Source: Candidatus Freyarchaeum deiterrae
Lineage (GTDB): Archaea > Asgardarchaeota > Jordiarchaeia > Jordiarchaeales > Jordiarchaeaceae
NCBI GenBank assembly: GCA_037305845.1
Contig: CP147778.1
Location: 2,624,001 to 2,688,000 of the forward strand
Reading direction: 5' to 3'
DNA length: 64,000 nucleotides
In this document: positions 9,775-61,945 of the stretch, piece by piece
How the letters are laid out: each line of letters begins with the position of its first letter
How positions within the stretch are numbered: position 1 is the stretch's first letter
Made by a program: the position numbers and the translations under genes
The notes under the pieces: generated by a model
The model's database searches: none
Told to the model about the DNA's origin: nothing
Seen by the model: only the letters and a program-made list of their open reading frames with translations

Positions 9775-9999
9775 ATGTTAGTTAAATTCGAGGTTTATAA
9801 TGACGGCGAATACTGGTGTGCTCGTGGTATCGGGGTGGATATTTTCACTCAGGGTAAGACACTGGATGAACTCATGGGAAACGTAAAGGAGGCAGTTGAA
9901 CTTCATTTTGACGAGGTGTTATCCTCAGGGGTGGACATACAGATATTGTCGATATTCGAGTTTGAGGTGCGCTCACTTGCCGAAGCTGCCGGTAGTTAG
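9775..9999 (+). CDS. hicB: Short HicB-like antitoxin
   Basis: IFTQGKTLDELMGNVKEAVELH motif. Confidence 0.85.
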   Translation: MLVKFEVYNDGEYWCARGIGVDIFTQGKTLDELMGNVKEAVELHFDEVLSSGVDIQILSIFEFEVRSLAEAAGS

Positions 10000-10225
10000 C
10001 GGAGAAAAACTGGTAAAACTGTTAAGGAAGATGGGATACGAGGTAATCCGGCAAAGAGGTAGCCATATAGTACTACGAAAAATAACGGAAGGGGGAGAAC
10101 ATAACATTACTATACCTAATCACCATGAGATCGCAAAAGGAACACTTAACGACATATTATCAAAGGTATCAATATGGAATAATATATCGAAGGATAATTT
10201 GATTGATATGCTTAAGAAAATTTAA
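9977..10225 (+). CDS. hicA: HicA mRNA interferase toxin (TTG start at 9977)
   Basis: MPKLPVVSGEKLVKLL...RQRGSH...IPNH..IAKGTL; GAGGTG SD upstream. Confidence 0.9.
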   Translation: MPKLPVVSGEKLVKLLRKMGYEVIRQRGSHIVLRKITEGGEHNITIPNHHEIAKGTLNDILSKVSIWNNISKDNLIDMLKKI

Positions 10226-10425: not shown

Positions 10426-10968
10426 TTATTTCCTTGCTCCTTTCTGGACTGGTGCTTGCTTCAATTTTTTCTTTAGGGCTTCTATGGCTCCGCCTTCTTT
10501 TATGATTTCCATGAGGAAATCTGGGAGTTTCGTTCCTTGGAACTCTTCGTGGGTTCTGAGGTTTCTGATTATTCCTTCTTCGAGTTCGATTTCTATAGTG
10601 TCTCCTTCCTCGAATTTTTGTGTGGCGTCTTTGCACTCTATGAGCGGTATTCCGAGATTTATGGCGTTTCTGTAGAATATTCTCGCGTAGAAATCTGCAA
10701 CTATGGCGCTTACTCCTAGTCTTTTTAGGACATAGGGGGCTTCCTCTCGGCTTGAGCCGCATCCGAAGTTTTTGCCAGCGACGATAATGTCTCCCGGCTT
10801 CACATTTTTCGCGAATCTGGGGTTAACCATCTCCATGGCGTGGCTTGCCAGTTTGTCCTGGTCTCTTATGGTTAGGTAGGGGCCGGCGATAATTACGTCA
10901 GTATCAATATTGTCTCCGAATTTCCAAACCTTTCCTCGAATAACTTTGCTCATAAACATTCTCTCCAT
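10426..10968 (-). CDS. leuD: 3-isopropylmalate dehydratase/homoaconitase small subunit
   Basis: FGDNIDTD, NFGCGSSREEA, ARIFYRNAINLG. Confidence 0.93.
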   Translation of the reverse strand: MERMFMSKVIRGKVWKFGDNIDTDVIIAGPYLTIRDQDKLASHAMEMVNPRFAKNVKPGDIIVAGKNFGCGSSREEAPYVLKRLGVSAIVADFYARIFYRNAINLGIPLIECKDATQKFEEGDTIEIELEEGIIRNLRTHEEFQGTKLPDFLMEIIKEGGAIEALKKKLKQAPVQKGARK

Positions 10969-11003: not shown

Positions 11004-12308
11004 TTATTGTGCTTGTTGTTTAACTTTTCTGGGGTCGGTTATTTCGCCCTTTACTGCTGAGGCGGCGACTGTTAGTGGGGATGCTAGGTAAACCTTGCTG
11101 TCTTTGCTGCCCATTCTTCCTATGAAGTTTCTGTTTGAGGAGGATATACAGACCTCTCCGGGTCCCAGTAAGCCGGAGCTTCCTCCGATACAGGGTCCAC
11201 AGTGTGGGTTGCAGATCACGTTTCCTGCGTCCATGAATATGTCTAGGAGTCCTTCGTGCATCGCTTGGGTGTAGACTTCTCGGGAGGCGGGAATAACTAT
11301 TCCTTTTACTTCTCTGGGAATTTTTTTGCCTTTCATAATTTTTGCTGCTGCCCTTAGGTCTTCTATTCTGCCGTTTGTGCATGAGCCTAGGAATGCTTGG
11401 TTTATTTTGATTCCCTCGACTTCTGAGACTGGAACCGAGTCTCCGGGGCTGGGGGGCATTGCTACTTGGGGTTCGAGGTTGGATACGTCCATTTTTATGA
11501 CTTCTTCGAAGTCGGCGTCTGGGTCGTTTTTCACCACTTTGAATTTTTCCTCTGTTCGAGACTTGACCCACTCGACGGTTTTTTCGTCGGGTTCAATTAT
11601 TCCAGCCTTGGCTCCAGCTTCTATAGCCATGTTGCTCAGGGTGAATCTTCCGTCAACACTCAATTCTCGGACAGCTTCTCCAGCGTATTCCATGGTTTTG
11701 TAGGTGGCTCCTTCCACTCCTATGTCTCCTATTATCCTGAGAATGATGTCTTTGCCCATAATGCATCTCGGAATTTTGCCCGAAATCTCAAACTTCATGG
11801 TGGCTGGAACCTTAAACCACAACTCTCCAGTAGCGAGAACCATAGCCATATCAGTGGAACCTATACCGGTACTGAAGGCTCCGAGGGCACCATAAGTCGT
11901 GGTATGAGAGTCGCTCCCAACAATGAGGTCTCCTGGCTTTACGAAGCCCATCTGGGGGAACACCACATGGCAGATTCCCTCACGCATCCCTAGCCAGTTA
12001 TCAATATTGTACTTGTCCACAAATTCCTGGCACTTCTGATGGATAATAGCCTCATCCACTGTTCCCGCAGGAGTCCAGTGGTCTATTAGTGCCACTACCC
12101 GATTCGCGTCCCACACATGATCCAAGCCCAGTTCATCGTAAATCTGGGCGATGCGCAGTCCGGTCAACCCTTAGCATGAGGAGGGCTGATTTCCGAGCAT
12201 CTCGTGTACCATGACGCGGTCAATCGTGGCGTTTACAATGTCTCCGGGCTCAACCTTCTTGTTTCCGGAGTGGCTAGCCAAAATCTTCTCCGAAATTGTC
12301 ATTCCCAT
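11004..12308 (-). CDS. leuC: 3-isopropylmalate dehydratase/homoaconitase large subunit, two exons (12308-12191 and 12157-11004), 423 aa after splicing
   Basis: N-terminus [13 protein letters not shown] from ATG 12308 is in frame with the downstream ORF (GICH, DSHT, GSCTNGR, CGPC, SNRNF) but interrupted by TAA at 12173-12171 inside a 33-nt insert. Confidence 0.9.
12158..12190 (-). other. Candidate 33-nt archaeal bulge-helix-bulge intron in leuC mRNA
   Basis: mRNA reads GAUGC-UCGG-AA^A-UCAGCCCU-(10-nt loop)-AGGGUUGA-CCGG-AC^U-GCGCAUC: a 4-bp central helix with two 3-nt bulges. Cleavage after bulge nt 2 on each strand removes the stop and restores the frame. Confidence 0.85.
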
Positions 12309-12446: not shown

Positions 12447-13574
12447 TTAAGATTTTTCAATTTTTTGCACTACTGCGTCTCCAACCTCTGAGGTGGTACT
12501 CGGGGTTATACCGCTGTACTTTCCGTAGCATAAATCTGGTGTTCTAATACTCTCCTCACTCAGAACGCTGGCGACGGCTTCTTCTATTTTAGCGGCTGCT
12601 CTTTCGCACGCTTTATCATTGTGCTTTAGAGCTAACCATTCGAGCATCATTTTTCCGGAAAGGATGGAACCTATTGGGTTCGCTTTGTTTTGACCCGCTA
12701 TATCGGGTGCGCTGCCGTGAACTGGTTCAAACATCCCGTGTTTCTCACCGATATTCCCGCTGGGAGCCATACCCATTCCACCGATTAGTACTGAGGAAAG
12801 GTCGGATAGTACATCGCCCATGAAATTCGATGTCACCACTACATCATAATGTTCAGGTGTTCTAATCATCCACTGGGTCATGGCGTCAACGAACACGTAG
12901 TCTCTCTGAACCTTCCCATAGCTTCCTGCTACTTCGTCGTAAATTTTTCTGAAGAATCTGCATCCGTCCAACACGTTGCTCTTATCAACGCAGGTCACAC
13001 GATTCTTACCGTCGCTGGGGGCACCGTTACGCCTCAGGCATAATTCAAAAGCGTAACGAATAATCCGTTCAGCTCCCTTTCGGGTAATCACTCTGACATC
13101 GATAGCAAGTTCATCAAGTCCTCCCCTGCTCAGCATGCCTCTGATGGGTACGTAAAGCCCCTCGGTGTTCTCCCTGACCACCATGAAGTCCACATCTTTG
13201 GGACCCTTGTCCAGAATTCGAGACTCAATTCCCTCGAACAACTTGGCGGGTCTTAAATTAACATAGAGATCCAAATCAAACCTCATACCCAGCAAAATGT
13301 CTATACCCGCAAGAACACCGTTAGGCTTGACTGCTCCGGGGTACCCTATGGCTCCGAAAAGAATAGCGTCGTTATTCTTGCAGGCCTCCCAGGCTTCGTC
13401 AGGCCACTCCTTTCCACTCTCCAGGTAGTACTTGCCGCCGCACGGGTACTCCTCAAAATCGTAATCAAAACCGGTGACCGCGTCTCGGGCAGCCTCCAGA
13501 ACCTTGACGGTTTCCGGAACAACTTCTCTGCCTACTCCATCACCGGGAAGAACCACAATCTTGTATGCCCTCAT
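12447..13574 (-). CDS. leuB: Isopropylmalate/isocitrate/tartrate dehydrogenase family
   Basis: LPGDGVG, VRENTEGLY, DKSNV, NFMGDVLSD, FEPVHGSAPDIAG..ANP; adjacent to leuCD. Confidence 0.85.
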   Translation of the reverse strand: MRAYKIVVLPGDGVGREVVPETVKVLEAARDAVTGFDYDFEEYPCGGKYYLESGKEWPDEAWEACKNNDAILFGAIGYPGAVKPNGVLAGIDILLGMRFDLDLYVNLRPAKLFEGIESRILDKGPKDVDFMVVRENTEGLYVPIRGMLSRGGLDELAIDVRVITRKGAERIIRYAFELCLRRNGAPSDGKNRVTCVDKSNVLDGCRFFRKIYDEVAGSYGKVQRDYVFVDAMTQWMIRTPEHYDVVVTSNFMGDVLSDLSSVLIGGMGMAPSGNIGEKHGMFEPVHGSAPDIAGQNKANPIGSILSGKMMLEWLALKHNDKACERAAAKIEEAVASVLSEESIRTPDLCYGKYSGITPSTTSEVGDAVVQKIEKS

Positions 13575-31829: not shown

Positions 31830-34800
31830 CTACTTTCCTTCTCGAATGACTTCTCTCAGATAGTCTAGAAACCTCTTGAACTCTTCTTCAGTCTCTAAAC
31901 CGTACAAGCCCAATATTTTCTGATAAGCGTCGTATTTTCCCTTTTGCTCTTCAAACAATATTTTCCAAATATAAGCTCTCACCAATGATCTGAGGGTGGT
32001 TGAACTAGGGTTCAACTTTTCAAGCCAGGGGAAAACAAGTTTCGCAACAACATTATCATTTTCCTTTTCAATAAATTTAAAGGGAGCATCTTCTCCGAAA
32101 CACTCAGCGATTAGATTAATTTTGTCTCCGAAAAACGTCTTACTGATTGTTCCCAATTCCATTACAGGTACTCGGTCCTCCAACGCAAATTTTGGAAGGT
32201 CGTTATCTATATTATTGATGTCTAGTTTCATGTCCTCGTACTCGTTTGATCTATCATTCATGTTTTTGTACTTCTTCCATACATCTGGCGCGAGTATCGC
32301 TAATTCTACGCTCATCATCTGTACCTGCCAAAATAGGTTAAACTTGGCTATATAATCATCCAAAATTTTTTTTGAGGCACTCTCGATATCGATTTGTTCA
32401 TCACTCTCCTTTAGAGTCTCCTTGAGTTCATCAACCATGGTCTTTGAGGGGATTTTCTTTCCAAAAGACTGTTTCACGAAATCGTTTACTAGTCTTTTAA
32501 CCGCTGGGATTTCGTCATTCTCCCAGAAGGCTAGGGCTACATAAGTTTCCATCACATCACTGGTACTCTTGAAGAATGGGTCAAAGGAGAACTCCTGGCA
32601 AATCTCTTCCAGTATTACTCTCTCTTCTTGAAAGAGAGGGCGTGGAGTTTCAAGAATTTTTTCAAATTTTTTGTGATTCTTGGCAATGTTCTCCAATTTT
32701 TGGACAAGTTCGCGGAATACTTCTAGCTGATTCCCTAACTCCTCCAGTTGGTCATCGATTTCTGGTTTCTCTACTCTTATGAACTCGATAATTGCCTGCA
32801 TTGTTTCTCTTTCATTCTTGATTATATTACAAATACTCTGGTAGGCGTCCTCAATGCCCATACCTAGTATTACCCTTACTGGCGGGATTAGTCTAAAATT
32901 AGCGATGGTTTCACTAAAATAGTAAGTCGCCTTTTTTGGTTCTTCACCAGTAATCTTGTTCCAGACCCAGTCCTTTCTCTGTTCAACATACTTTTTCAAT
33001 TTGTTTATGGAATCAAAAGAGTTTTTTTCAACATCCAGCTTCTTCTCAAGTTTTTCCAGTCTGCTTAGGGTTTTCTTCGATTCCTTGGGATCCTGGGACT
33101 TTTTGATGGAACCCAAGTCGCTGATTAACTCATTATAAATCTTTACGACTTCATTTCCCAGCGCCTTAGATCTTATCACAGTACTATTCTGCATCTCTTT
33201 TTCTAGGGCTTCGATAAGGTTAAAGGTAGTCCAAGCGTAGTTTATTTCTCCAATTATTTTCTGATAGTTTTTATACAATTCGACTGCAGGTATCGGTATT
33301 CTAACTTCATCCCCCAAAAAAATTCCCCCAAACCCATCCTTCCCTAATAGCATTTTTCTTATCGCTTCTTGCAAAATTCGCTTCGCCTTATCAGCTCTTT
33401 CTACATTGCAAGTCAATGCGATTTCTTTTTCACTTATTCTTTTTATTTCGCTGCTAACATTTTCGAGAATCTTAACATTCTCAAATCCTGTGTCTTTCAG
33501 GATTACTTTAAAGGCGTCGTCTAATTTATCCAAAATCTTTGACTCTTTTAGAAGATACCCCAGTGTAGGATATATTGAGGTCATCTCTTTACCCACAAAG
33601 CCTTTGACTAGCTCCCTTATAAAACTTAAATACACAATAGAAGCAGGGTCTTTTATCTCTGGTTCCAGATGTTTTAAAGCTAACATTATAGCCGAGGCTG
33701 CATCACCTTTTAGGGAGCTCACAGCTCGCTCGTTGATAAAATCCGCAATTCTCATTCTGAACTGTTCTAAAGGCTCAGTAAATATTGAAAACACAATGTT
33801 AATCTGATAAAGCCTTTCTTGAAGAGTCGTGTAAAGTTTATTAATCCACTCATCCATCTTTCTTCTCAAAGTCTCGGTTTTCTGTTTGCTAAACACATCT
33901 TTCGCAAACTTATCCATACTGAAAACTTCATCTATTATTTTTACAAAGAGCCCCTCTATAATTTCTTGCTCAACCGCTGGAATAACCTCATTAATAATCT
34001 CTAACATTTCATTTTTTAAACCAGCTTTCTTTTTAGAATCGTAGGTTAGAGCCGTGAGTGGAAATGCTTCATAAATTTTATCCACCATACTCACCGCGAG
34101 AAAGTCCAATATCTCTTCCTTTCTCTGGGAGATTTCCTCAAAAGACATTGATTCAAATTTAGCGCCCACACTATATAGGAACTCCGACCCGTACTTCATT
34201 CTAACAAAGAAATCTTTCCTTTTTGTACCCCATTCCCTGAGCTTTTCTTTCAGTGTACTATCAAACAGGTTGAAATAGCTTCTCTGCTCACCAAGAAGAA
34301 GTAAACAAGAGGGATTTAACCGAAACAGACTCTCAGAAGCCGTCAAGGAGATGTGCTTGGGCCAAGATTCTAAATTCATGTCAACATTACTTCTTAGTGG
34401 CCCTAATATTTTCTGAATGCTAAACTCAGCTTCTTCCAACTTGATGTTTTGAGCCTCGTACACCTCATCTAAATATTCAGAGATCATTTCGGAACAAATA
34501 TGTTTACTTTCAACTAATCCTTTGTCATCCGCAGAAAGAGCCCTCAGAATTGTTCCCTGCTCTTTGAGAGCCTGTGTGCAAGCCTCAGAAAAAACTCTCC
34601 ATGAATCGCCCAGATCATCGGGAGATTTTACTATTTGATTCAATTCTCCATACCTAAAAGCGGAGGCACCGGTTCTTAATATTGCATCCAAGTTCGCTTC
34701 TTTTCCACTATTCTCCAATTCCGCAATGCGATAATTCAAGTGTTTAACAATACTTGACATCAGATAATCCTTAAGAAAAACGAAAAACTCTTTTTTACCT

Positions 34801-35213
34801 TTATTCTTCTGCTCTAGGGTATCGATGTCTAGGGAATAAGAACTGCCTGGTATCAGAGCGGCTCCTATATAAAACTCTCGAATCTCTCCCGCAACCTCAT
34901 ATTCTTTAACACACCAGCCGATTCCACCAGAAGAATTAATCCCGCCGAAGAACACATCCTTAGCGGTACCAGCATGCTCTCTAACAGACTGTTCTAATGC
35001 AAAAACCAAGCCCGTTGACATGTCAGGATCACTAGCTTTTTTTCCGCCGCCAACGGTGTAAATAGATATGCCAGTTTGGCCGTCACCAACGAGAATTTCA
35101 AGCATGCCAAAAGCATAATCTGCAGAAGATTTAGCTTCAGCTGAGCTTTCAACATTTACCTTTTCCAAAGCGACACTCCCAAAATTACCCACCGCTCCAG
35201 TAATAAGAATCAT
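31830..35213 (-). CDS. Giant hypothetical protein, N-terminal longin/roadblock-like domain + long helical/coiled-coil region (copy A, intact)
   Basis: 1127-aa ORF with LEILVGDGQTGISIY...DPDMSTGLVFALEQSVRE. The start may be TTG ~35168 by comparison with copy B. Confidence 0.8.
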   Translation of the reverse strand: MILITGAVGNFGSVALEKVNVESSAEAKSSADYAFGMLEILVGDGQTGISIYTVGGGKKASDPDMSTGLVFALEQSVREHAGTAKDVFFGGINSSGGIGWCVKEYEVAGEIREFYIGAALIPGSSYSLDIDTLEQKNKGKKEFFVFLKDYLMSSIVKHLNYRIAELENSGKEANLDAILRTGASAFRYGELNQIVKSPDDLGDSWRVFSEACTQALKEQGTILRALSADDKGLVESKHICSEMISEYLDEVYEAQNIKLEEAEFSIQKILGPLRSNVDMNLESWPKHISLTASESLFRLNPSCLLLLGEQRSYFNLFDSTLKEKLREWGTKRKDFFVRMKYGSEFLYSVGAKFESMSFEEISQRKEEILDFLAVSMVDKIYEAFPLTALTYDSKKKAGLKNEMLEIINEVIPAVEQEIIEGLFVKIIDEVFSMDKFAKDVFSKQKTETLRRKMDEWINKLYTTLQERLYQINIVFSIFTEPLEQFRMRIADFINERAVSSLKGDAASAIMLALKHLEPEIKDPASIVYLSFIRELVKGFVGKEMTSIYPTLGYLLKESKILDKLDDAFKVILKDTGFENVKILENVSSEIKRISEKEIALTCNVERADKAKRILQEAIRKMLLGKDGFGGIFLGDEVRIPIPAVELYKNYQKIIGEINYAWTTFNLIEALEKEMQNSTVIRSKALGNEVVKIYNELISDLGSIKKSQDPKESKKTLSRLEKLEKKLDVEKNSFDSINKLKKYVEQRKDWVWNKITGEEPKKATYYFSETIANFRLIPPVRVILGMGIEDAYQSICNIIKNERETMQAIIEFIRVEKPEIDDQLEELGNQLEVFRELVQKLENIAKNHKKFEKILETPRPLFQEERVILEEICQEFSFDPFFKSTSDVMETYVALAFWENDEIPAVKRLVNDFVKQSFGKKIPSKTMVDELKETLKESDEQIDIESASKKILDDYIAKFNLFWQVQMMSVELAILAPDVWKKYKNMNDRSNEYEDMKLDINNIDNDLPKFALEDRVPVMELGTISKTFFGDKINLIAECFGEDAPFKFIEKENDNVVAKLVFPWLEKLNPSSTTLRSLVRAYIWKILFEEQKGKYDAYQKILGLYGLETEEEFKRFLDYLREVIREGK

Positions 35214-35369
35214 AACGGATTCATAAATTTCTTTCGCAAGAAAATAACTTTCTGTAGTGATGGGAGGAATTGAAATAATTTAAGATGGCGTTATATAATT
35301 CTCTAAAATTCTCTTTAAATATCCCTTTTACCGCTCTCCAAATCTCCTTTCTCTACTTCCAAAAGTTCT

Positions 35370-35490
35370 ATTAGTTCTTGTTCGTTTGGCTCTTCTGAAT
35401 CCCACTTAACTTCTTTAACTCCTTTGTTTTTCTTTTACGTCTTATTTTTTGGAGAAATTTTATTAGTTGATTACTTGCTTTTTCCGACAA
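35370..35490 (-). pseudogene. Decayed copy of the 31337-31546 gene
   Basis: MSEKASNQLIKFLQK matches MSDEKASDQLIKYLEK, then diverges and stops. Confidence 0.65.
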
Positions 35491-35765
35491 GTTATCAAAC
35501 TCTCTCTCTACTCTAAATTCTTGTAAGCTATCTTGTTTTCAATTCAAATTATATTTTCGTTTTTTATTTATTTAATGTTTTAAGAATATTTTTGCACTTT
35601 TTAACCGACAACCATTCCACAGAAATTGAAAATTTCCAATCCCCCTTTAGTTAAGAGCATAATATTGGGGGGCGGGTTTCCCAGAAATTTTTTATATTTA
35701 ATTTCTTCAACAATTCATATAATGAAGGTAGCTATCTCTCCAGCTAAACTAACGGGGCCGCATTC

Positions 35766-36407
35766 ATGGGTGACGAAAAATCAATCAAAAAGACTTACTC
35801 AATTTGTCCCTGCCTACTTAAGGACAAGGAAGAATATATATGTCTGGGGAGGGATGAACTTTACCCCTTATCCTTTTTCATACCAGTTAATTTCGAAATT
35901 GACTTGCCTTTAAAAGAAGAGAATACGTGTCTCGACATGGTTTACTCTGACAGCTCTGGACGCATCTGTTGCGGCTCAACCGGTTTACCGATTAAGGTAA
36001 AAGGAAAACTGATTTTTGATGAAGTTTTTAGTGAATTATACCGATTAGCCACCAGCCTCTTTAATCCAGAGGACATCTGCAGGGAGTGCATGTACAATCT
36101 TCTCAGCTTTGAGAAAATTAATAGAAAACTAATCTTCCTACTTTTCACATCTGGTAACCCCCACTGCAAAGAATTCGAAAAATCTTTCAAGGAGACGGTT
36201 GACAACCTGCAAGTCTGCGAAGAGGATTCCATTGTAAAAATGAAATTCTCTGGTAAAATAAAGGAAACTTTCAAGGATCGAATCAAAGAACTGCCCACCG
36301 TGTACATCATAGATGAAAAAAGAAAAATTGGTGAAATCGTGGGTGCTACAGGCAAAGATGAACTGGAGAAAATTCTAAGAAAAATATTGGGTTTAAAAAC
36401 AACCTGA
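35766..36407 (+). CDS. Cys-rich N-terminal domain + thioredoxin-like fold protein
   Basis: CPC, ICLG, CCG, CREC, then LLFTSGNPHCKEF...LPTVYII...GATGKDEL (Trx-like, first Cys of CxxC absent). Confidence 0.65.
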   Translation: MGDEKSIKKTYSICPCLLKDKEEYICLGRDELYPLSFFIPVNFEIDLPLKEENTCLDMVYSDSSGRICCGSTGLPIKVKGKLIFDEVFSELYRLATSLFNPEDICRECMYNLLSFEKINRKLIFLLFTSGNPHCKEFEKSFKETVDNLQVCEEDSIVKMKFSGKIKETFKDRIKELPTVYIIDEKRKIGEIVGATGKDELEKILRKILGLKTT

Positions 36408-36408
36408 A

Positions 36409-37884
36409 TTACTTTCCTTCTTGAATAACTTCTTTCAGATAGTCTAGAAATCTTTTAAACTCTTCTTCTGCCTCTAAACCGTACAAGCTTAATATTTTTT
36501 GATAGGCATCATATTTTCCCTTATTCTCTTCAAACAACGTTTTCCAAGTATAGGCTCTCACCCATGATCTGATAGACTTCGAATTGGGGTTCAAATTTTT
36601 AAGCCAAGGAAATGCAAGTTTAACCACAATATTATCATTTTCTTTTTCAATTAACTTCAAGGAAGCTTCCTCTCCGAAACACTCGGCGATTAACTCGAGT
36701 TTGTCTCCAAAGAATGCCTTATTAGTTGTTCCCAATTCCATTACTGGTACTCCGTCCTCCCACGCAAATTGTGGAAGGTCTTTGTCTATATTATTGATGT
36801 CTAGCTTCATCTCCTCGTACTCGTTTGCTCTATCGTCATGGTTTTTGTACTTCTTCCAGACGCTTGGAGCGAGTAGCGCTAATTCCACACGCATAACCTG
36901 TATCTGCCAAAATAGGTTAAACTTGGCTATGTACTCCTCCAAAATTTTCTTTGCAGCACTTTCTACATCGATTTGTTCCTCGCTCTTCTTTAGTGTTTCT
37001 TTAAGTTTTTCAACCATGGTCTTTGAGGGGATTTTCTTTCCAAAAGACTGTTTCACGAAATCGTTTACCAGCCTTTTAACCGTTGGAATTTCATCATACT
37101 CCCAGAAGGCTAGGTCTAAGTAGGTTTCCATCACATCGTAAGCACTCTTGAAGAATGGGTCAAAGGAGAACTCCTGACAAATCTCCTCCAGCAGAGCTTT
37201 CTCTTCCTGAAAAAGAGGGTGAGACGTTTCAAGAATTTTTTCAAATTTTTTATGATTCTTGCCAATCTTTTCCAATTTCTGTGCAAGTTCTCGGAATACC
37301 TCTAGCTGATTCCCTAATTCCTTCAATTGGTCTTCAATTTCCGGCCTCTCATCTTCTATGAACTCAATAATTGTCTCAATTGTTTCTTTTTCAGTCTTGA
37401 GTATATCACAAATACTCTGGTAAGCATCCTCGATGCCCATACCTAGCATTACCCTAACCGTCGGGATTAATCTAAAATTAGCGATAGTTTCACTAAAATT
37501 GTAAGTCGCCTTTTTTGGCTCTTCACCAGTAATCTTGTTCCAGACCCAATCTCTTCTCTGCTCAATATACTTTTTCAATTTGTTTATGGAATCAAAAGAA
37601 TTTTTTTCAACATCCAGCTTCTTCTCAAGTTTTTCCAGCCTGCTTAGGGTTTTCTTCGATTCCTTGGGATCCTGAGACTTTTTGGCAGAACCTAGGTTGC
37701 TGATTAACTCATTATAAATCCTTGCGACTTCATTTCCCAGCGCCTTAGAACTAATCAAAGTATTACTCTTCATCTCACTTTCTAGAGCTTCGACTAGATT
37801 AAAACTGGTCCAAGCGTAATTTATTTCTCCAATGATTTTCTGATAGTTTTTATACAATTCGACTGCAGGTTTCGGTATTCTCAA
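36409..37884 (-). CDS. C-terminal half of giant-protein copy B
   Basis: Aligns with copy A from RIPIPAVELY onward; TTG start overlaps the upstream TGA. Confidence 0.7.
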   Translation of the reverse strand: MRIPKPAVELYKNYQKIIGEINYAWTSFNLVEALESEMKSNTLISSKALGNEVARIYNELISNLGSAKKSQDPKESKKTLSRLEKLEKKLDVEKNSFDSINKLKKYIEQRRDWVWNKITGEEPKKATYNFSETIANFRLIPTVRVMLGMGIEDAYQSICDILKTEKETIETIIEFIEDERPEIEDQLKELGNQLEVFRELAQKLEKIGKNHKKFEKILETSHPLFQEEKALLEEICQEFSFDPFFKSAYDVMETYLDLAFWEYDEIPTVKRLVNDFVKQSFGKKIPSKTMVEKLKETLKKSEEQIDVESAAKKILEEYIAKFNLFWQIQVMRVELALLAPSVWKKYKNHDDRANEYEEMKLDINNIDKDLPQFAWEDGVPVMELGTTNKAFFGDKLELIAECFGEEASLKLIEKENDNIVVKLAFPWLKNLNPNSKSIRSWVRAYTWKTLFEENKGKYDAYQKILSLYGLEAEEEFKRFLDYLKEVIQEGK

Positions 37885-39749
37885 ACTTCATCACCCAGAA
37901 GAATTGCCTCTAATCCTTCTTTTCCTGATAACATTTTTCTTATCGCTTCTTGTAAGATAGACCTCGCTTCAATGGCTCTTTCCACACTGCTGTTCAATGC
38001 GATTTCTCTTTCACTTACTCTTTTAATTTCGCTGCTAACATTTTCGAGAATCTTAACATTCTCAAATCCTGTGTCTTTCAGGATTACTTTAAAGGCGTCG
38101 TCTAATTTATCCAAAATCTTTGCCTCTTTTAGAAGATATCCCAGTGTAGGGTACACCACATTCATCTCTTTACCCACAAACCCTTTAACTAACTCTTTTA
38201 CAAAACTCAAGTACACCACAGCAGCGGGGTCTTTTATCTCCGGTTCCAGATGTTTTAAGGCTAATATTATAGCTGAGGCTGCATCGCCTTTTAGGGTGGC
38301 CACGGCTCTCTCGTTAATGAAATCCGCAATATTAGCTCTGAACAGTTCTAAAGGCTCTGTAAATAGTGAAAACACAATGTTTGTCTTGTAAAGTCTTTCC
38401 TGAAGAGTTTTGTAGAGTTTGTTAATCCAATCATCCATTTTTTTTCTCATAGTTTCCGTTTTCTGTCTACCGAACACATCTTTTGTAAACTTTTCTACAT
38501 TGAAAACTTCATCCTTTATTTTTTCAAATAGCTCCAATATAGCCATTCGCTCAACCGCTGGAATAACCTCATTTATAATTTCCGACATTTCGTTTCTTAA
38601 AACAGCTTTCTTTTTAGGATCGTAAGTTAGAGCCGTGAGTGGAAAGGCTTCATAAATTTTATCCACCATACTCACAGCAAGAAAGTCCAGTATCTCATCC
38701 TTTCTCTCGGAAATTTCGTCAAAAGAAATCGATTCAAATTTAGCACCCACATTGTATAAAAACTCCGACCCATACCTCATTCTGATTAGGAAGTCTTTCC
38801 TTCTTGTCCCCCACTCTCTGAGTTTTTCTTTCAGTGCACTGTCAAACAGACTGAAATAATTTCTCTGCTCACCAAGAAGAAGTATACAAGAGGGATTAAT
38901 CAGGTACAGGCTTTCAGCCGCCGTTAGTGAGATATGTTTGGTCCAAGAATCTAGAGCCTTATCTACATTGCTTTTAAGTGGTCCTAATATTTTCTGAATG
39001 CTCCATTCAGCCTCTTCTAACTTTATATTTTGAGCCTCGTACACCTCTTCCAAGTATTCAGAGATCATTTCGGAACAAATACGTTTACTCTCAACTAATC
39101 CCTTCTTATCCGCAGAAATAGCCCTCAGAATTGTGCCATGCTCCTTAGTCGCAAATCTACAGGCATCAGAAAAAACTTTCCAGGAGTCGCTCAAATCCTC
39201 AGGGGTTTTCGCCATCTGATTTAATTCTCCACGCTTGAAAGGAGGGACACCAGTTCTTAACAACGCATCGCAGGTTGCTTCCTTTCCTTTTTCCCCCAAT
39301 TTTGCAATGCAAATATTCAAGTGTCTAATAATGCCCGGCATTAGAAAATCCTTGAGAAAAACGAAAAACTCTCTTTTACCCTTATTCTTCTGCTCCAGAG
39401 TATCGATGTCCAGAGAATAAGAACTACCAGGTGTCAGAGCAGCTCCAATATAAAACTCTCGAATCTCTTCCGCAACATTAAACTCCTTAACACACCAGCC
39501 GATTCCACCAGTAGCATTAATACCTCCAAAAAACACATCCTTGGCGGTGCCGGCATGCTCTCTGATAGACTGTTCGAGTGCAAAAACCAAGCCCGTTGAC
39601 ATGTCCACATCATTAGTCGCCCTTCCGCCGCCGACAGTGTAGATAGACATACCAGATTTTCCATCCCCAACAAGAATTTCAAGCGTACCAAAAGCGCTCA
39701 TGCCAGAAGATTTACCTTCAGCTGATTTTTCAACGTCTCCACTTTTCAA
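37881..39749 (-). CDS. N-terminal half of giant-protein copy B (longin-like domain)
   Basis: Aligns with copy A up to GDEV; stops at TGA because of 2 extra nt. Confidence 0.75.
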   Translation of the reverse strand: MKSGDVEKSAEGKSSGMSAFGTLEILVGDGKSGMSIYTVGGGRATNDVDMSTGLVFALEQSIREHAGTAKDVFFGGINATGGIGWCVKEFNVAEEIREFYIGAALTPGSSYSLDIDTLEQKNKGKREFFVFLKDFLMPGIIRHLNICIAKLGEKGKEATCDALLRTGVPPFKRGELNQMAKTPEDLSDSWKVFSDACRFATKEHGTILRAISADKKGLVESKRICSEMISEYLEEVYEAQNIKLEEAEWSIQKILGPLKSNVDKALDSWTKHISLTAAESLYLINPSCILLLGEQRNYFSLFDSALKEKLREWGTRRKDFLIRMRYGSEFLYNVGAKFESISFDEISERKDEILDFLAVSMVDKIYEAFPLTALTYDPKKKAVLRNEMSEIINEVIPAVERMAILELFEKIKDEVFNVEKFTKDVFGRQKTETMRKKMDDWINKLYKTLQERLYKTNIVFSLFTEPLELFRANIADFINERAVATLKGDAASAIILALKHLEPEIKDPAAVVYLSFVKELVKGFVGKEMNVVYPTLGYLLKEAKILDKLDDAFKVILKDTGFENVKILENVSSEIKRVSEREIALNSSVERAIEARSILQEAIRKMLSGKEGLEAILLGDEV

Positions 39750-39946
39750 AACAACACATCCAGAAAATTCTCTATCGCTTTCACATAAAAGAACATAACA
39801 GATTCCTAAAAGCTTATTGTACCCACAAACATTTTACCAACGACTAAACTGAGATTTGTTAGTTTGAAACGTTTTTCCACAAAATATATTAGAAAAAGGC
39901 TAATTTGTTTAGAGAACTGTTAAAGAAGTTACTCGGACTCTGTTTT

Positions 39947-40900
39947 CTATTCTTGCTGCTTTTTTATCTCCTTTAGAATTTTGTCTCTGGTTTTCTGATC
40001 CTTTGTAATTATTTTTCCATCAGTTGAGATGTATATTTTTGGTGTTTTTGCTTCAATTAGTGGTCCGACTTTTCTGAAATCTATTCCTTGTCTTGATTTT
40101 AACCCTTCTATTGCGTCGAGGATGTTGTCTCCCTCAAGGGTGATTTTCTGTATTCCCTTTACTCCACTGAATTGTGAATCTCCTGCGAATGATGCCTTTT
40201 CTACTGTTTCGTTTTCCATAATCTCTTGTAGAACGTATGGGGGTATGGTAATGGGGGCAAATTTTGCGGCTATTACTTTTTGCAAGGTTTTTATAACTTC
40301 ATCAACTTTTTTCTTTGAATCTCCACCTATTAAAAGCGTCTGTTTCTCCAAGTTTAGGATGCATCTCACATGGTTTACTGGATTTATCACCGTATAATCA
40401 AAGTCCCACTGTTCCACTAAAAGCGGCTTCTCCTCATAAGAATACACCAGGTAATACTCTTTATCCTTAGAAATTTCGAACACATTGAAATTGGCTCTCG
40501 AAGAATTGTCAATGCTCTTTAGCATTCGTTTTAGAATATTCTCTAAACCATTGGTATCTATACTCTCAATAGGCTTCGAATAATTGTAAACACTCCACTC
40601 ATCCTCTTTAAAAACGGTGTTCATATCATAAAGGAGCAGGAGGTCCAAAAACTTTGGGAAAATTAATTCTTTTCCGTCGAGAATTTCTATAATTTCATCT
40701 TTCGGTAAATCGCCAACTATTCCAAATCCCCAACCCGTTACTAGTTTCTGCACTACCTTTGGGCTTAAAGGCTCAAAAAGAAATTCTAAGACTCTCTTAT
40801 CTAACAACACTTTTCTTATTTCTGCGTAGCTCAAAGAAGTCACCGAATTTACATTATTGATTAACCCATAAACTCTATTATTAGAATCCTTTATTGTCAT
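39947..40900 (-). CDS. Hypothetical alpha/beta protein
   Basis: 317-aa ORF with normal composition; no securely recognised motif. Confidence 0.75.
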   Translation of the reverse strand: MTIKDSNNRVYGLINNVNSVTSLSYAEIRKVLLDKRVLEFLFEPLSPKVVQKLVTGWGFGIVGDLPKDEIIEILDGKELIFPKFLDLLLLYDMNTVFKEDEWSVYNYSKPIESIDTNGLENILKRMLKSIDNSSRANFNVFEISKDKEYYLVYSYEEKPLLVEQWDFDYTVINPVNHVRCILNLEKQTLLIGGDSKKKVDEVIKTLQKVIAAKFAPITIPPYVLQEIMENETVEKASFAGDSQFSGVKGIQKITLEGDNILDAIEGLKSRQGIDFRKVGPLIEAKTPKIYISTDGKIITKDQKTRDKILKEIKKQQE

Positions 40901-57303: not shown

Positions 57304-58378
57304 TTAGTGTTTCTTGGCTGGTGTTTTGAGGTTTTTGTTCTCCAGAATTTTCTGGTTTGTTTCGAGGAATTCCTGGAGTTCGGGGTTCTCTGTGGCGATT
57401 TTCAGTGACTCCGTGTTCCAGTGGTCCGCCTTTTTGCCTCTCCAGACGCCGTAAATTTTTGCCTTTATTTTTCCGGTTATGCCGATGACCCCGTAAGTGA
57501 TAGCTGCGGTGTAGAGGAGCAGTGCAACATCTTCCCAGTCTACCTCAGTGCTCATTGGGGGTTCTTCTTGGCGGTCGAGGCGTATTCCCTTTAGTTTGAG
57601 TGCGGTGGCTCTATCGGTGAAGGCTTCATCCTCGCTGAAGACCAGCAGGTCTACGTTTCTCTCTTTGGAGAATTTTTGCAGCACCTCAAGTATTTGCAGG
57701 TCACCCCTTCCTCCCTTCAGTTCCTCGAAGTATTCTCGTATTGACATCTTACGGTACTCCACGAAACCCATTCTAAAGAGTCGACAATCCAGCTTCAACT
57801 GGTTAAAGAACTCATCCAAGATATCACGATCCACATTAAGCGCACCACTCATCTCGGAGATATCGGATGTCTTATATTTGGCGTCGATGCCTCCCAGTTC
57901 CGCTAACACACCCTTTGAAGTCACGAACCCCGCTCTCAGTTGATTCGAATGCAGAAGATTTGAAACCAGAGTGTAGTGCCTCCTTATAAACGCGTTAGTG
58001 TCAAAAGAAATAAAGACCGATCTCTCACCCTTCAGAGGATCCCTCTCCAACTCGTCTAAAATCCTCTTCTCTATCTGAGTCCATTTCTCAGGTTTATGCA
58101 CGCCCGCGGCGAAAAACATGTTAAGGTAATCCGCTTACCCGGGAATCTCACCTACCACCTCACCACAACTCCTCCTCAGCCCCTCGTAAACATCTTTCTG
58201 TATTAAGCCACCAACTTCCGTAACCTCCCTAGGACCACTAAGAGTAACCCAAAAACAATTCCCGGTCAAGAAGTTGATCAAGCAGAAAAGACTTCACCCT
58301 AAACGAATTAGCACCATTCAGAAACAAACCATTCAAAAACAGAAAAAAATCCCCAAGCGGAACAAAAAACTCATTCAC
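57304..58378 (-). pseudogene. CRISPR-associated PIN-domain nuclease with 5' frameshift and premature stop
   Basis: PIN motifs FDTNAF, GDLQIL, FSEDEAF. The upstream frame from GTG 58378 is broken in a T-run (~58253) and by TAA 58137-58135. Confidence 0.7.
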
Positions 58379-58871
58379 CAGAACCCCACCCCTCCCTCAC
58401 ACAGTCCAAAACGTTAACCAGCCTCTGCTGATTAAAGGGAATCAAAATGTACGGTCTATCCTGATAAGCAGCATTGAAAAGATACAAGTAGTACAATTTA
58501 CTCACATTAAACTTCTGCCCCCTATCCGCCATCGCAACCGCCATAGCACACGCACTCATAAACTTCCTACCCGGAGTCATATCAACTGCAATCTCGTTAC
58601 CAGCCTCCGACCGAGCAACACCCATGAAAACCTTAGCAAAAGCGTCCATATCCTCCTCATCACAATCATGCTCCTCGAAAACAGGCACAACACCATAACA
58701 CCCCAAAACCCTAACCAGCCAATCCCTCACAGGAGCAACATTACGCTCAACCTTCCCATTCTTCAAAAGATGAACCCTCCCAGACACCAAACCATCACGA
58801 ATACAAGCAGCCCAAAGAGGATTAACAACCACAAAAACACTCGAACCAACCGTAGTAACCCAAACCCTCAT
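58371..58871 (-). CDS. Stand-alone CARF-domain protein
   Basis: VTTVGSS at the N-terminus and AVDMTPGRKFMS are CARF motifs; lies between the array and the type III operon. Confidence 0.85.
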   Translation of the reverse strand: MRVWVTTVGSSVFVVVNPLWAACIRDGLVSGRVHLLKNGKVERNVAPVRDWLVRVLGCYGVVPVFEEHDCDEEDMDAFAKVFMGVARSEAGNEIAVDMTPGRKFMSACAMAVAMADRGQKFNVSKLYYLYLFNAAYQDRPYILIPFNQQRLVNVLDCVREGWGSGE

Positions 58872-59146
58872 AAAACCCCAAACTCCTACAAAAACAACAC
58901 CAAACTAAAAAATATTTAATTTTCAACCCTTAAAAACCTTTACATGAACCGACAAAAAATAATTCCACCTTATCTAATCCCCATTTATCCCCCAATAAAA
59001 GAAAATGAGGTATCAATTGAGATTTCTGGCAAGTTTACCCAGACTAGCAAGAAAAAGGAAACCATGCAAAATTTAGAAAGAAAAGGTTACACACCCGGCT
59101 GAGAGCAATCTAACCTATGAGTTGCAAAATCCAATGAGCCCATAAA

Positions 59147-59242
59147 GTTTCAATCCCTTATAGGTAGGCTCCAAACTCTAAATGAAAAAAGAATAGAGTT
59201 CATGGCAGAGCAGTTTCAATCCCTTATAGGTAGGCTCCAAAC
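59147..59242 (-). CRISPR. Mini CRISPR: two 30-nt repeats (GTTTGGAGCCTACCTATAAGGGATTGAAAC as transcribed) and one 36-nt spacer
   Basis: Identical repeats at 59147-59176 and 59213-59242; non-coding leader-like DNA to the right. Confidence 0.9.
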
Positions 59243-59586
59243 CAAGCGTATTTTCGCTTCTTTTGGCAATTGGAGGATTTTTAAAGCTTCTTTTGGGGAT
59301 GCCTTGTTGCATAATTATTTATGTGCTTATTCGATTTTTAAGGTACGAGGCAATTTTAAAACATGTATTTAGAGATGTTTGAAAGCGTCCAGCCCACTTA
59401 TGTAATCAATAAACAATGTAAAATTGTGTAACAAGGCTCTTCGAACAGTAGACTCGTGGGAAGGTGGCGAAAGTTGAATGGGTGTGTGGTAAGGTTGTAA
59501 AGTTTGAGGATGATTTCTGGTGGAGGGTGTGTTTTTTAGAGTGATTATGGTTATCGTTTCTTTTTGTTTTCTCCTTTTGAATTAAA

Positions 59587-61380
59587 TTATGAGGGTAAGC
59601 CTTCGTTGTCCTCGGAGGCGATCTTTAGGGGGATTCCCTGTTTTTTATTTTTTACGAACCATTGGAAGTTTCTTCCTTCTACGCCGGGTTTTTCTGAGGT
59701 TCTTGGATAGTGTACAGTCAAACCAGAGGAAGGTGCACTTAGTATCGCTTTAAGGTCTTTGACGTTTTCCAATTCTTCGAAAGTTTTGTTGTATTTATTT
59801 TCCATGGCTTGTTTGAATGAATTTTTGCATTCTTTTATTTTTTGGTTGGTTATTTTTTTCCATTCGGTGTTTGAATAGGATGCGTATCTTTCTTTTATAT
59901 TAAGTATACTGATGTTCTCTATGGATATTTTTACGCTTCCAAATCCTAGTGGCTTTGCTAATCCTAATTTGTGGTGCATTTCATCCTCCATTTCTATTGA
60001 CCAGAGCAGTGCTCCAAGTTCTACTGGTGCCAGGTTTTCGAATTCTATTGTAAACTGGAATTTGGCACCGGGGTTTAAGGCGTCTCTGATTGTTCGATTT
60101 TGCTTGTCTATTATTATATTGTCTGTCCGGATGTATTCCTGTTCTTTGGCTTCGGTTTGGTGCCTGTAGAATTTTCTACCCCTTAACTGTGCACCGGGTG
60201 TATCGTAAGTTACGGATAACTTTGGCTTTCCTTTTTCAAAAAGGTAGAAATATGTTGTGGTGGGTTTCGGCGTAGATAGAATTGCACATGGGAATTCTTT
60301 TTGGTGGTCTTTGTTTTCTACTATTTTTGCGTGGCTTATTCTGATTCTTCCCGCGTAGGATACCTTCATTTCAAGTTCTTTAGATGGGTTTTGATGCACC
60401 CAGCCGAATACTCTGCAAGCGGGGCAGAGTTCGTTATAATCTGAGCAGGGATGAAATTCTTTTGGGAGTAGGTCGCCAATAGACTTACTAAAAGGTTTAC
60501 GATAAATCTGAGCATAACCGAATTCGTTTATCTTTTTTCTATTCTTTCCTACTCTAAACCATATTGTATCTCCTGGTCGGGGATACTTTGTATGTTCGTG
60601 TCTATTGTTTCTATTCGCGATAACATAGTTTTGGTACGTTTCATAGGATAATTCGAAGTATGTTGATGAATTATCATCGACAAATACACACTCGTTTCTT
60701 TTTTGAGTTGAACCGGGTATTCCTTTATCGCTTGTTTTTAGATAACCTTCCAAGTAGCCTCCAGTATTTTTTTCTTTTGCATTATATTCTTTTACCTCAG
60801 ATACTTCATTATTATCAATCTTTACTAGGACCTTTTTCCCATTCATCCTGAAATTATTCGTGTAACGAGGAAATCTGTTATGGGGTAATCTGTATGCTTT
60901 CATTTGTTTAACGCGTCCAAGTTTATTTTCACTTTTAGGAATTTCTATTATCAGCCCCGCAATAAGTGGTGTTTCATCGTATTCTTCAGGTCTTTCTCTT
61001 TTCCCTAAAAGTCCCCCTTCAAAAATCGAAAAACAGGAATTGGTAGCGGCTTCGAATACACTCCTCAATGTTCCCCTCAAAGTTGTGGAGGGTATTGCAA
61101 AATATTCTTGCCCATTTTCATTTAGTCTGAAGAATCTGTATGACTTGTGTTCTTTCACTTTGTCATTAACATGAACCTCTTCGGGGTCTGATACGAAAAT
61201 TGGTGTAACAGCCTTTAGTTCGCATTCTATCCTGCCGGTTAATCCTATGAATCTGTCGTGCGGCGGCGGGGCGCATTTTCCTAAAAGTTTATTCTCGGGC
61301 GTATCTTTCTCTTTTCCTTGAGGTAAATATCTTACAAAGTTGTATGGATTTAGGAATCTGTGACTACTCATTTTCATCAT
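59587..61380 (-). CDS. cas7: Type III-D Cas7 with insertion (TIGR03986-like RAMP)
   Basis: FLNPYNFV, IPSTTLRGTLRS, CPACRVFG, RGRKFYRH, G-loop LGLAKPLGFGSV. Confidence 0.92.
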   Translation of the reverse strand: MMKMSSHRFLNPYNFVRYLPQGKEKDTPENKLLGKCAPPPHDRFIGLTGRIECELKAVTPIFVSDPEEVHVNDKVKEHKSYRFFRLNENGQEYFAIPSTTLRGTLRSVFEAATNSCFSIFEGGLLGKRERPEEYDETPLIAGLIIEIPKSENKLGRVKQMKAYRLPHNRFPRYTNNFRMNGKKVLVKIDNNEVSEVKEYNAKEKNTGGYLEGYLKTSDKGIPGSTQKRNECVFVDDNSSTYFELSYETYQNYVIANRNNRHEHTKYPRPGDTIWFRVGKNRKKINEFGYAQIYRKPFSKSIGDLLPKEFHPCSDYNELCPACRVFGWVHQNPSKELEMKVSYAGRIRISHAKIVENKDHQKEFPCAILSTPKPTTTYFYLFEKGKPKLSVTYDTPGAQLRGRKFYRHQTEAKEQEYIRTDNIIIDKQNRTIRDALNPGAKFQFTIEFENLAPVELGALLWSIEMEDEMHHKLGLAKPLGFGSVKISIENISILNIKERYASYSNTEWKKITNQKIKECKNSFKQAMENKYNKTFEELENVKDLKAILSAPSSGLTVHYPRTSEKPGVEGRNFQWFVKNKKQGIPLKIASEDNEGLPS

Positions 61381-61381
61381 C

Positions 61382-61945
61382 TCACTTAATTTCTAGGAAC
61401 CATACAAAGGAGATTACTCCCTGTTCGCTCAATGTTTTGTAGTGTATCTTTGCAAAGTTCGAGTTGCCTTTTACAGGGTAGGAGAGTCTTGCCTTTGCGA
61501 CTCTGTCTTCTTGCCATATACTTCTTTTCGGATCGTATGTTCTTCCCCAGAGGAGTGCTTCTTTTTTTTCTATGAAAAACTTCTTGTCAGGATTCTTTTT
61601 CCAGAAGTCCTCTCCGTTTGTATTTTTTGGTGGATTGTTATTGCCTATGTATCTCCATATGAAACGATTTGTATCTCTCCTTAGATCTAGATCTCCGTCT
61701 TGTCCGAAAATGCGTATTCTTTCGACTTGGTTCGAAGGTATTTTGGAAAAGTCAAAATTCTTTTTAATGATTATTTCTTTGAGTGTCTCTAAAATTGTGA
61801 ATGGCATATTTGAGAAATTCCACTTGCTAATAAATTGTTGTAAACTATTTTCCTCTATCTCGCTGCCCCAAATTTGAATATCGTTTTTTGATATTCTATT
61901 TTCTTCAAGCAAATCATTTATTTTCTTACTAAAATCAGTGCTCAC
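61382..61945 (-). CDS. csx19: Type III-D Csx19
   Basis: RIRIFG..GDLDLR, LLWG, LSYPV; positioned between RAMP genes. Confidence 0.75.
   Translation of the reverse strand: MSTDFSKKINDLLEENRISKNDIQIWGSEIEENSLQQFISKWNFSNMPFTILETLKEIIIKKNFDFSKIPSNQVERIRIFGQDGDLDLRRDTNRFIWRYIGNNNPPKNTNGEDFWKKNPDKKFFIEKKEALLWGRTYDPKRSIWQEDRVAKARLSYPVKGNSNFAKIHYKTLSEQGVISFVWFLEIK

Follow-up and report, generated by a model that had tools for sequence, protein, structure and literature searches.

A 33-nt insert that interrupts a LeuC/HacA-family gene of Candidatus Freyarchaeum deiterrae, an Asgard archaeon of the Jordarchaeales, is very probably spliced out of the coding mRNA as a tRNA-type bulge-helix-bulge (BHB) intron. 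Splicing is predicted from the sequence and geometry of the insert, its conservation and covariation, the protein restored on removal and the enzyme genes of the host. The insert lies in the window, i.e. the whole 64,000-nt stretch of DNA that was analyzed, which is part of a closed genome of 3,576,204 bases. As assessed by translation, the interrupted gene starts with an ATG at 12308 and runs in one frame to 11004, with a single internal TAA at 12173-12171, and its closest named protein homologs come from Jordarchaeaceae and Jordarchaeales. The features of the locus are as follows (window coordinates; a slash within a motif marks a predicted cut).

12447..13574 (-): upstream gene of the LeuB/tartrate/homoisocitrate dehydrogenase family, intact, 375 aa
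12318..12322 (-): GGAGG, Shine-Dalgarno-like, ahead of the exon 1 start; GGAGG precedes the start in 12/12 orthologs
12191..12308 (-): exon 1 of the LeuC/HacA-family large subunit, 39 codons plus the A of the junction codon, ending in HEMLG
12154..12199 (-): whole hBHBh' motif, including the 3-bp exon-exon helix UGC 12199-12197 / GCG 12156-12154
12193..12196 (-): central helix, exon strand UCGG; 4/4 pairs in all 12 distinct orthologous inserts
12190..12192 (-): bulge 1 (AA/A), with the 5' splice site predicted between 12191 and 12190 from the geometry and the EndA rule (PMC5829648)
12158..12190 (-): predicted BHB intron, 33 nt, phase 1, with the in-frame TAA at 12173-12171
12164..12189 (-): intron hairpin, 8-bp stem 12189-12182 / 12171-12164 with a 10-nt loop; the stem co-varies, loop length and sequence are free
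12160..12163 (-): central helix, intron strand CCGG; CCGA, CUGG or CUAA in orthologs
12157..12159 (-): bulge 2 (AC/U), with the 3' splice site predicted between 12158 and 12157; the product equals the empty site of the intronless homolog L388
11004..12157 (-): exon 2, UG of the junction Met codon plus 383 codons and the stop; DSHT, GSCTN and CGPC motifs kept
10426..10953 (-): downstream small subunit gene of the LeuD/HacB family, intact, 175 aa

Cutting in silico after base 2 of each bulge takes out 33 nt and leaves the joined sequence HEMLGMRIAQIY, encoding 423 aa; every element of this geometry, and the 423-aa product of the 33-nt removal, was found in the sequence as an earlier note on this DNA had claimed. 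Since four separate Logan assemblies agree on every base of the insert, it is not an assembly error. Single-sequence folding gives z = -1.9 at best against shuffles, and the minimum free energy structure of the isolated 53-71 nt stretch is a shifted register, not the BHB. Minimal BHB shapes, as counted by a structure-only scan, number ~145,000 in the genome and are no commoner than a mirror-image control. The fold alone does not exceed chance, and it is the restored frame and the conservation that lift the insert above it. In the first genome-wide scan for frame-restoring BHB shapes the insert ranked top, and its score (25.6) compares with 16.5 for the runner-up within the window.

The interrupted gene and its neighborhood

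Features of the LeuC/HacA type within the aconitase superfamily are present in the interrupted gene, namely three Fe-S cysteines, the DSHT motif and a partner small subunit. In a profile search with the exons scored separately, exon 2 reaches 494 against the LeuC equivalog TIGR02083 (cut-off 611) and 477 against the homoaconitase HacA model NF040615 (cut-off 550), and passes only the subfamily models TIGR01343, NF001614 and TIGR02086. Judged by its sequence, the gene is a member of the LeuC/HacA subfamily, and "leuC" is to be read as a family call only. Two further uninterrupted LeuCD-like operons, each with a LeuC/HacA-family paralog and a small subunit, are found in the same genome. Because no equivalog cut-off is passed and these two operons exist, a dependence of leucine biosynthesis on splicing is not established. 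The earlier description of the gene as leuC, a central biosynthetic gene, therefore holds for the family but not for the specific function. The LeuB-like and LeuD-like neighbors are intact, as had been stated, with ORFs of 375 and 175 aa on the two sides. In the other Jordarchaeales family, the ortholog of the interrupted gene is found without LeuB-like and LeuD-like neighbors.

Other features of the window were recorded along the way. A HicB/HicA-like toxin-antitoxin pair (9775-10225; HicA Pfam match in L256) lies directly 3' of the small subunit gene. An IS607-like element at 3-1011 consists of a serine recombinase gene followed by a TnpB-like gene, as judged from the translations. Long genes of no known family, encoding 1127, 454, 606 and 317 aa, occupy 31833-40900, and the 1127- and 606-aa proteins share the N-terminal motif FG.LEILVGDG..G.SIYTVGGG. 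RAMP-type (type III CRISPR-like) genes are present at 57307-63648, with only two CRISPR-DR2 repeats (59147-59176 and 59213-59242).

Conservation of the insert and alternative readings

At the DNA level, the insert is found at the same nucleotide in 9/9 orthologs from two families (this gene, four from the same genus and four from the same order), and 21 more distant homologs have no insert at that position. Adding contigs of other collections brings the orthologous inserts to 12 distinct ones, with lengths of 29, 30, 33 and 41 nt. In all 12, the central helix is paired at 4/4 positions and removal by the BHB rule gives HEMLGMRIA. Stop read-through cannot rescue the 29- and 41-nt forms, since these lengths shift the frame. 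Across the nine orthologs 94.4% of the pair cells are paired, compared with 23-39% for slid controls. Two-sided changes affect six pairs, including one in the central helix (UUGG/CUAA), although these are not counts of independent events because the nine orthologs are kin. Helix h has 3 bp in 9/9 orthologs, and helix h' keeps 5-7 of 7 pairs with five two-sided changes. Without guidance, RNAalifold finds the central helix, the first bulge and the inner stem.

The exons themselves are under purifying selection, as assessed by pN/pS values among the 12 orthologs of 0.12 for exon 1 and 0.16 for the first 150 codons of exon 2. The start codon, the Shine-Dalgarno sequence and all three Fe-S cysteines are kept across orthologs, protein identity across the two families is 70-72%, and no other lesion was seen in the 370 exon 2 codons checked. 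In one Logan contig (SRR29366191, L255:1520-1530), a G is missing directly behind the 3' splice site; its loss would put the spliced product out of frame and reflects either an assembly error or a rare allele. Of the remaining Asgard matches (251 genomes, E <= 1e-135), all but one at a contig end show an open frame of at least 419 aa. With full-length open frames in these matches, the intron looks confined to Jordarchaeales.

The predicted product can be compared with genes in which the site is empty. In a quick tree with SH-aLRT support only, the intron-bearing sequences form a clade (support 99) whose sisters (support 88) are the intronless P0049 and P0054. Both of these read HEMLGMRVA, and the DNA of one of them matches the predicted spliced junction at every base. 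The spliced frame aligns to intronless homologs with a gap of 0. The earlier note had proposed the junction residue as a diagnostic, with Met expected from BHB cutting and Leu from loss through the flanking CGGA repeat, and the intronless sisters carry Met. Its other alignment check, whether orthologs use the LTG derived from the insert, also came out in favor of splicing, as they do not. In PDB 4NQY chain A, the counterpart of exon 1 is residues 20-58 (E 3.6e-9), and extrapolation places the beginning of exon 2 at residue 60. The exons are colinear with the structure, and exactly one residue between them falls to the junction. The intronless sister gene is itself clustered (L388:3189-6260), with two aconitase-family large subunits around one small subunit and a gelsolin-domain gene adjoining.

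Searches for the spliced junction found no match in metagenome contigs and, in genome contigs, one only, an unrelated chance match in a bacterium; a gapped junction pattern gave mostly chance matches, with four true loci among the 80 matches listed. The full-length protein is absent among database homologs of at least 70% identity. As the metagenome and protein collections are mostly DNA-derived, both of these negatives are weak.

The strongest rival to splicing is programmed ribosome hopping of the T4 gene 60/byps kind, in which the ribosome would take off at GGA, slide over the hairpin and land at the GGA 33 nt further on, making HEMLG-L-RIA with no RNA cut. In this genome GGA does stand at both take-off and landing, with a stop and a hairpin between them, as is typical of bypassing (PMC8211752). 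However, the stop lies six codons past take-off and is not adjacent to it, the landing codon is GAA or AAA in 3/12 orthologous inserts in which the central helix is still paired, and the intronless sisters have Met, not Leu. Only 4/22 of the inserts listed for this genome (see below) have matching codons, and in these companion genes hopping would replace both the catalytic Asp of Cbf5 and a His of Pcm with Asn and put a stop codon into Kae1. Hopping also leaves the exon-intron helix with its two flanking 3-nt bulges unexplained, and we consider it very unlikely. It is likewise highly improbable that the gene is split or truncated, with a restart at a TTG or ATG inside the insert giving ~385 aa, alone or together with the exon 1 peptide. 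A TTG in the exon 2 frame does occur inside the insert here and in most orthologs, and gene callers annotate the gene in this way, but the L006 insert is devoid of a start codon, and exon 1 aligns with 4NQY over a region that holds the conserved H-E/D motif. Each ortholog ends its exon 1 peptide in a different tail, and a split gene would have no reason to conserve a BHB.

An account in which the hairpin insertion knocked the gene out and paralogs do the job, or in which the insert is an assembly artifact, could draw on the two intact LeuC/HacA-family paralogs with small subunits in the genome. Against it stand the four identical assemblies, the pN/pS values of 0.12-0.16 and the intact Fe-S cysteines in two families, and it appears extremely unlikely. 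Excision at the DNA level through the CGGA direct repeat, in a subpopulation of cells, is hardly credible: CGGA is indeed found on both sides in this genome, but the repeat is a by-product of the near-palindromic central helix and no longer exists in L005, L006, L007 and L009. Such excision would give Leu where the sisters have Met, and no empty allele of this ortholog was found in the metagenome or genome contigs searched.

Splicing enzymes and companion inserts in the genome

The reading that we prefer, a BHB intron removed from the message, calls on enzymes for which the genome has genes, two EndA paralogs (C1:1921033 and C1:1733162 regions) and one RtcB. One EndA (alpha) has Tyr, His and Lys aligned with those of the catalytic subunit of PDB 3P1Z and an N-terminal GQPLGIRKPK loop, as in crenarchaeal-type enzymes, whereas the other looks by sequence like a structural (beta-like) subunit. 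Asgard archaea are reported to have this two-subunit EndA type with a broad-specificity loop (PMC5829648), and the chemistry of EndA cutting is established (PMC10485636). In the splicing that we propose, the end of exon 1 would pair with the end of the intron, forming a central helix of 4 bp with a 3-nt bulge on either side. EndA, which has two subunits in this host, would cut after base 2 of each bulge and RtcB would join the exons (GGA-A/UG-CGC), after which the ribosome would make the 423-aa large subunit of an aconitase-family isomerase. The 33-mer would be freed, possibly (by analogy only) as a circle, and an unspliced message would yield a 45-aa dead-end peptide.

A blind scan of the same genome looked for BHB shapes whose removal joins two coding stretches. 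At one untuned threshold it returned 18 matches, compared with 4 for a mirror control. The scan with a tuned score gave an 11-to-1 excess over the mirror control, an optimistic figure because the score was tuned on positives already seen. Structure alone fails to separate signal from the mirror control; frame restoration and coding potential do so. Removal restores well-known motifs in cbf5, kae1, pcm, ahcY (twice), alba, the POR alpha subunit, an HD hydrolase, gatE, nadE, moaE, tyrS, the TIGR00375 gene, an Obg-like GTPase and rtcB. The hypD, mvhD, hdrC and queE inserts, whose BHB geometry and restored motifs were also checked, were missed by the blind scan, and the census is neither complete nor a formal count; with two weaker cases included, it stands at 22 inserts in 21 genes. 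The interrupted LeuC-like gene thus appears to hold one of about 20 such mRNA introns in the genome. The expectation, voiced from the window alone, of more hidden mRNA introns genome-wide is borne out by about 20 other such inserts, and the blind scan recovered cbf5 as an internal positive control. Among sequences that were considered and set aside, C1:2860631-2860662 reads in frame without removal, and several high scorers (C1:2253786, C1:2971091) look by eye like gene boundaries or in-frame sequence.

The 22 inserts are unrelated in sequence, with no match among themselves or elsewhere in the genome beyond 21 nt, and yet 19/22 end in AA and 16/22 begin with A. In two of the genes, the exons hit consecutive profile positions (59 then 61 in pcm, 136 then 138 in nadE). 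Orthologous inserts with the same geometry were found for kae1, rtcB, ahcY, nadE, tyrS, gatE and pcm, the tyrS comparison leaving out family f2 and G021, in which the junction is not alignable. The cbf5 insert (C1:1483415-1483446 (-)) separates base 1 of the catalytic Asp codon from base 2, the same position as that of the crenarchaeal cbf5 intron (PMC2738675). Eighteen genomes from five Asgard families carry it, with a co-varying helix, and at least five other Asgard families checked at the junction lack it, a distribution that reflects either shared ancestry or repeated gain. The kae1 insert (C1:2203715-2203742) occurs in three families; its version in family f2, of only 13-14 nt, nears the lower size limit for a BHB intron. 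In genome G004 the kae1 gene (C185:6866-6905) has another break around profile position 126-153, possibly a second intron or an assembly error.

In rtcB, a 29-nt BHB insert (C1:1452796-1452824 (-)) splits LPD/AHQG, and four other members of the genus have 30-nt versions with a perfect central helix (all five read at the DNA level); none was found in the other families examined. This interruption of the ligase gene raises the possibility of a feedback loop. Two inserts occur in ahcY, at C1:1877011-1877066 (56 nt) and C1:1876899-1876927. Of these, the 56-nt insert is known from this genome only and has a 7-nt direct repeat at its borders; it is a candidate for a recent gain and may illustrate how introns of this kind arise. 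Within the genus, the nadE insert and one of the ahcY inserts occur in some members only, a sign of recent gain or loss. In another family (G021, L242), gatE carries a BHB insert of 41 nt that lies 5 nt upstream of where the gene of the present genome (L106) is interrupted, and we take the two to be independent gains into the same motif.

The LeuC/HacA-family intron itself would have been gained once, in the ancestor of the Jordarchaeales ortholog, at a site still empty in the sister homologs. We propose that it is kept because the host removes it, selection acting only on splice geometry. As this intron is one of about 20, mRNA splicing is probably routine in this organism and most likely constitutive. 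The regulatory switch that had been suggested finds nothing in its support, neither the loop nor the unspliced peptide being conserved.

Known introns of this type and possible consequences for Asgard biology

The closest known relative is the cbf5 pre-mRNA intron of crenarchaea, described in Desulfurococcales and Sulfolobales (Yokobori et al. 2009, PMC2738675; review PMC10485636). Of the features of a cbf5-type BHB intron, those that show in sequence were all found for the LeuC/HacA-family gene: the motif, the flanking helices, frame restoration, conservation of structure over sequence and host genes for the enzymes. In both cases the intron is short (16-44 nt there, 29-41 nt here), ORF-less, bounded by BHB junctions, in phase 1, in or beside a conserved motif and in a host with two-subunit EndA. 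The host gene encodes an RNA-modification enzyme there and an aconitase-family metabolic enzyme here, in Crenarchaeota and Asgard archaea (Jordarchaeales), respectively. The crenarchaeal motif is relaxed and the intron is the sole one, whereas here the motif is canonical and the intron one of about 20. Splicing was demonstrated there and is predicted from sequence here. The BHB intron in the 5' UTR of Haloferax volcanii HVO_1309 (Schwarz et al. 2020, PMC7714728) is likewise an EndA substrate in mRNA (predicted here), but it is untranslated and interrupts no frame, whereas the protein described here would need intron removal. These two, cbf5 and the HVO_1309 5' UTR, were the only archaeal mRNA cases found in a literature search that left subscription journals largely outside, and the same search found no paper on Asgard mRNA BHB introns. 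What is known is the chemistry of the cbf5-type intron; what is new is the class of host gene, the phylum and the scale.

Protein-only, tRNA-like mRNA cutting is also familiar from eukaryotes, in which IRE1 cuts XBP1/HAC1 mRNA at dual stem-loops and RtcB ligates it, as a regulated switch. A role of RtcB in XBP1 splicing is stated in PMC8718801. The likeness extends to RtcB ligation and a short frame-changing intron (both predicted here); the nuclease and the motif differ, and splicing of the present intron is most likely constitutive.

According to the study describing the 3.58-Mb Freyarchaeum deiterrae genome, 92-95% of tRNA genes have introns (PMC11291895), and non-canonical tRNA introns are abundant in Freyarchaeia and Atabeyarchaeia (PMC11291895; bioRxiv 10.64898/2026.10.13.758758). 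Archaeal and Asgard tRNA introns share with the present inserts the motif, presumably the enzymes and the lack of mutual sequence relatedness, the difference being that they sit in tRNA genes and not in a coding message. A term search of both sources found no mention of mRNA introns, and according to the preprint none of its newly identified tRNA inserts has so far been shown spliced in an Asgard cell. The soil metatranscriptomes published for this organism (PMC11291895, BioProject PRJNA1050611) are expected to hold junction reads.

Public gene callers render the interrupted gene as an N-terminally truncated protein plus an ORF of 43-51 aa, and not, as the earlier note had foreseen, as a pseudogene. 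All of the database homologs of at least 71% identity (42/42) are called without the N terminus. On this reading Asgard proteomes are mis-annotated, with conserved genes such as kae1, cbf5, tyrS, gatE and rtcB appearing split or truncated.

A conserved BHB intron in a metabolic enzyme, together with about 20 companions in a single complete genome of an Asgard archaeon, would turn a curiosity into a step of expression on which many genes depend, and would do so in the closest lineage to eukaryotes. With slightly better than even confidence, we suggest that Asgard archaea of several classes routinely splice dozens of coding messages by means of the tRNA endonuclease and RtcB. The introns would lie mostly in conserved or catalytic motifs and differ in age, with old ones in cbf5 (five families) and kae1 (three families) next to others of recent date. 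In this genus rtcB would itself need splicing. If this is true, the rtcB feedback loop would tie the expression of intron-containing genes to splicing capacity, and the closest prokaryotic relatives of eukaryotes would have a spliceosome-free, genome-wide and potentially regulated layer of mRNA splicing.
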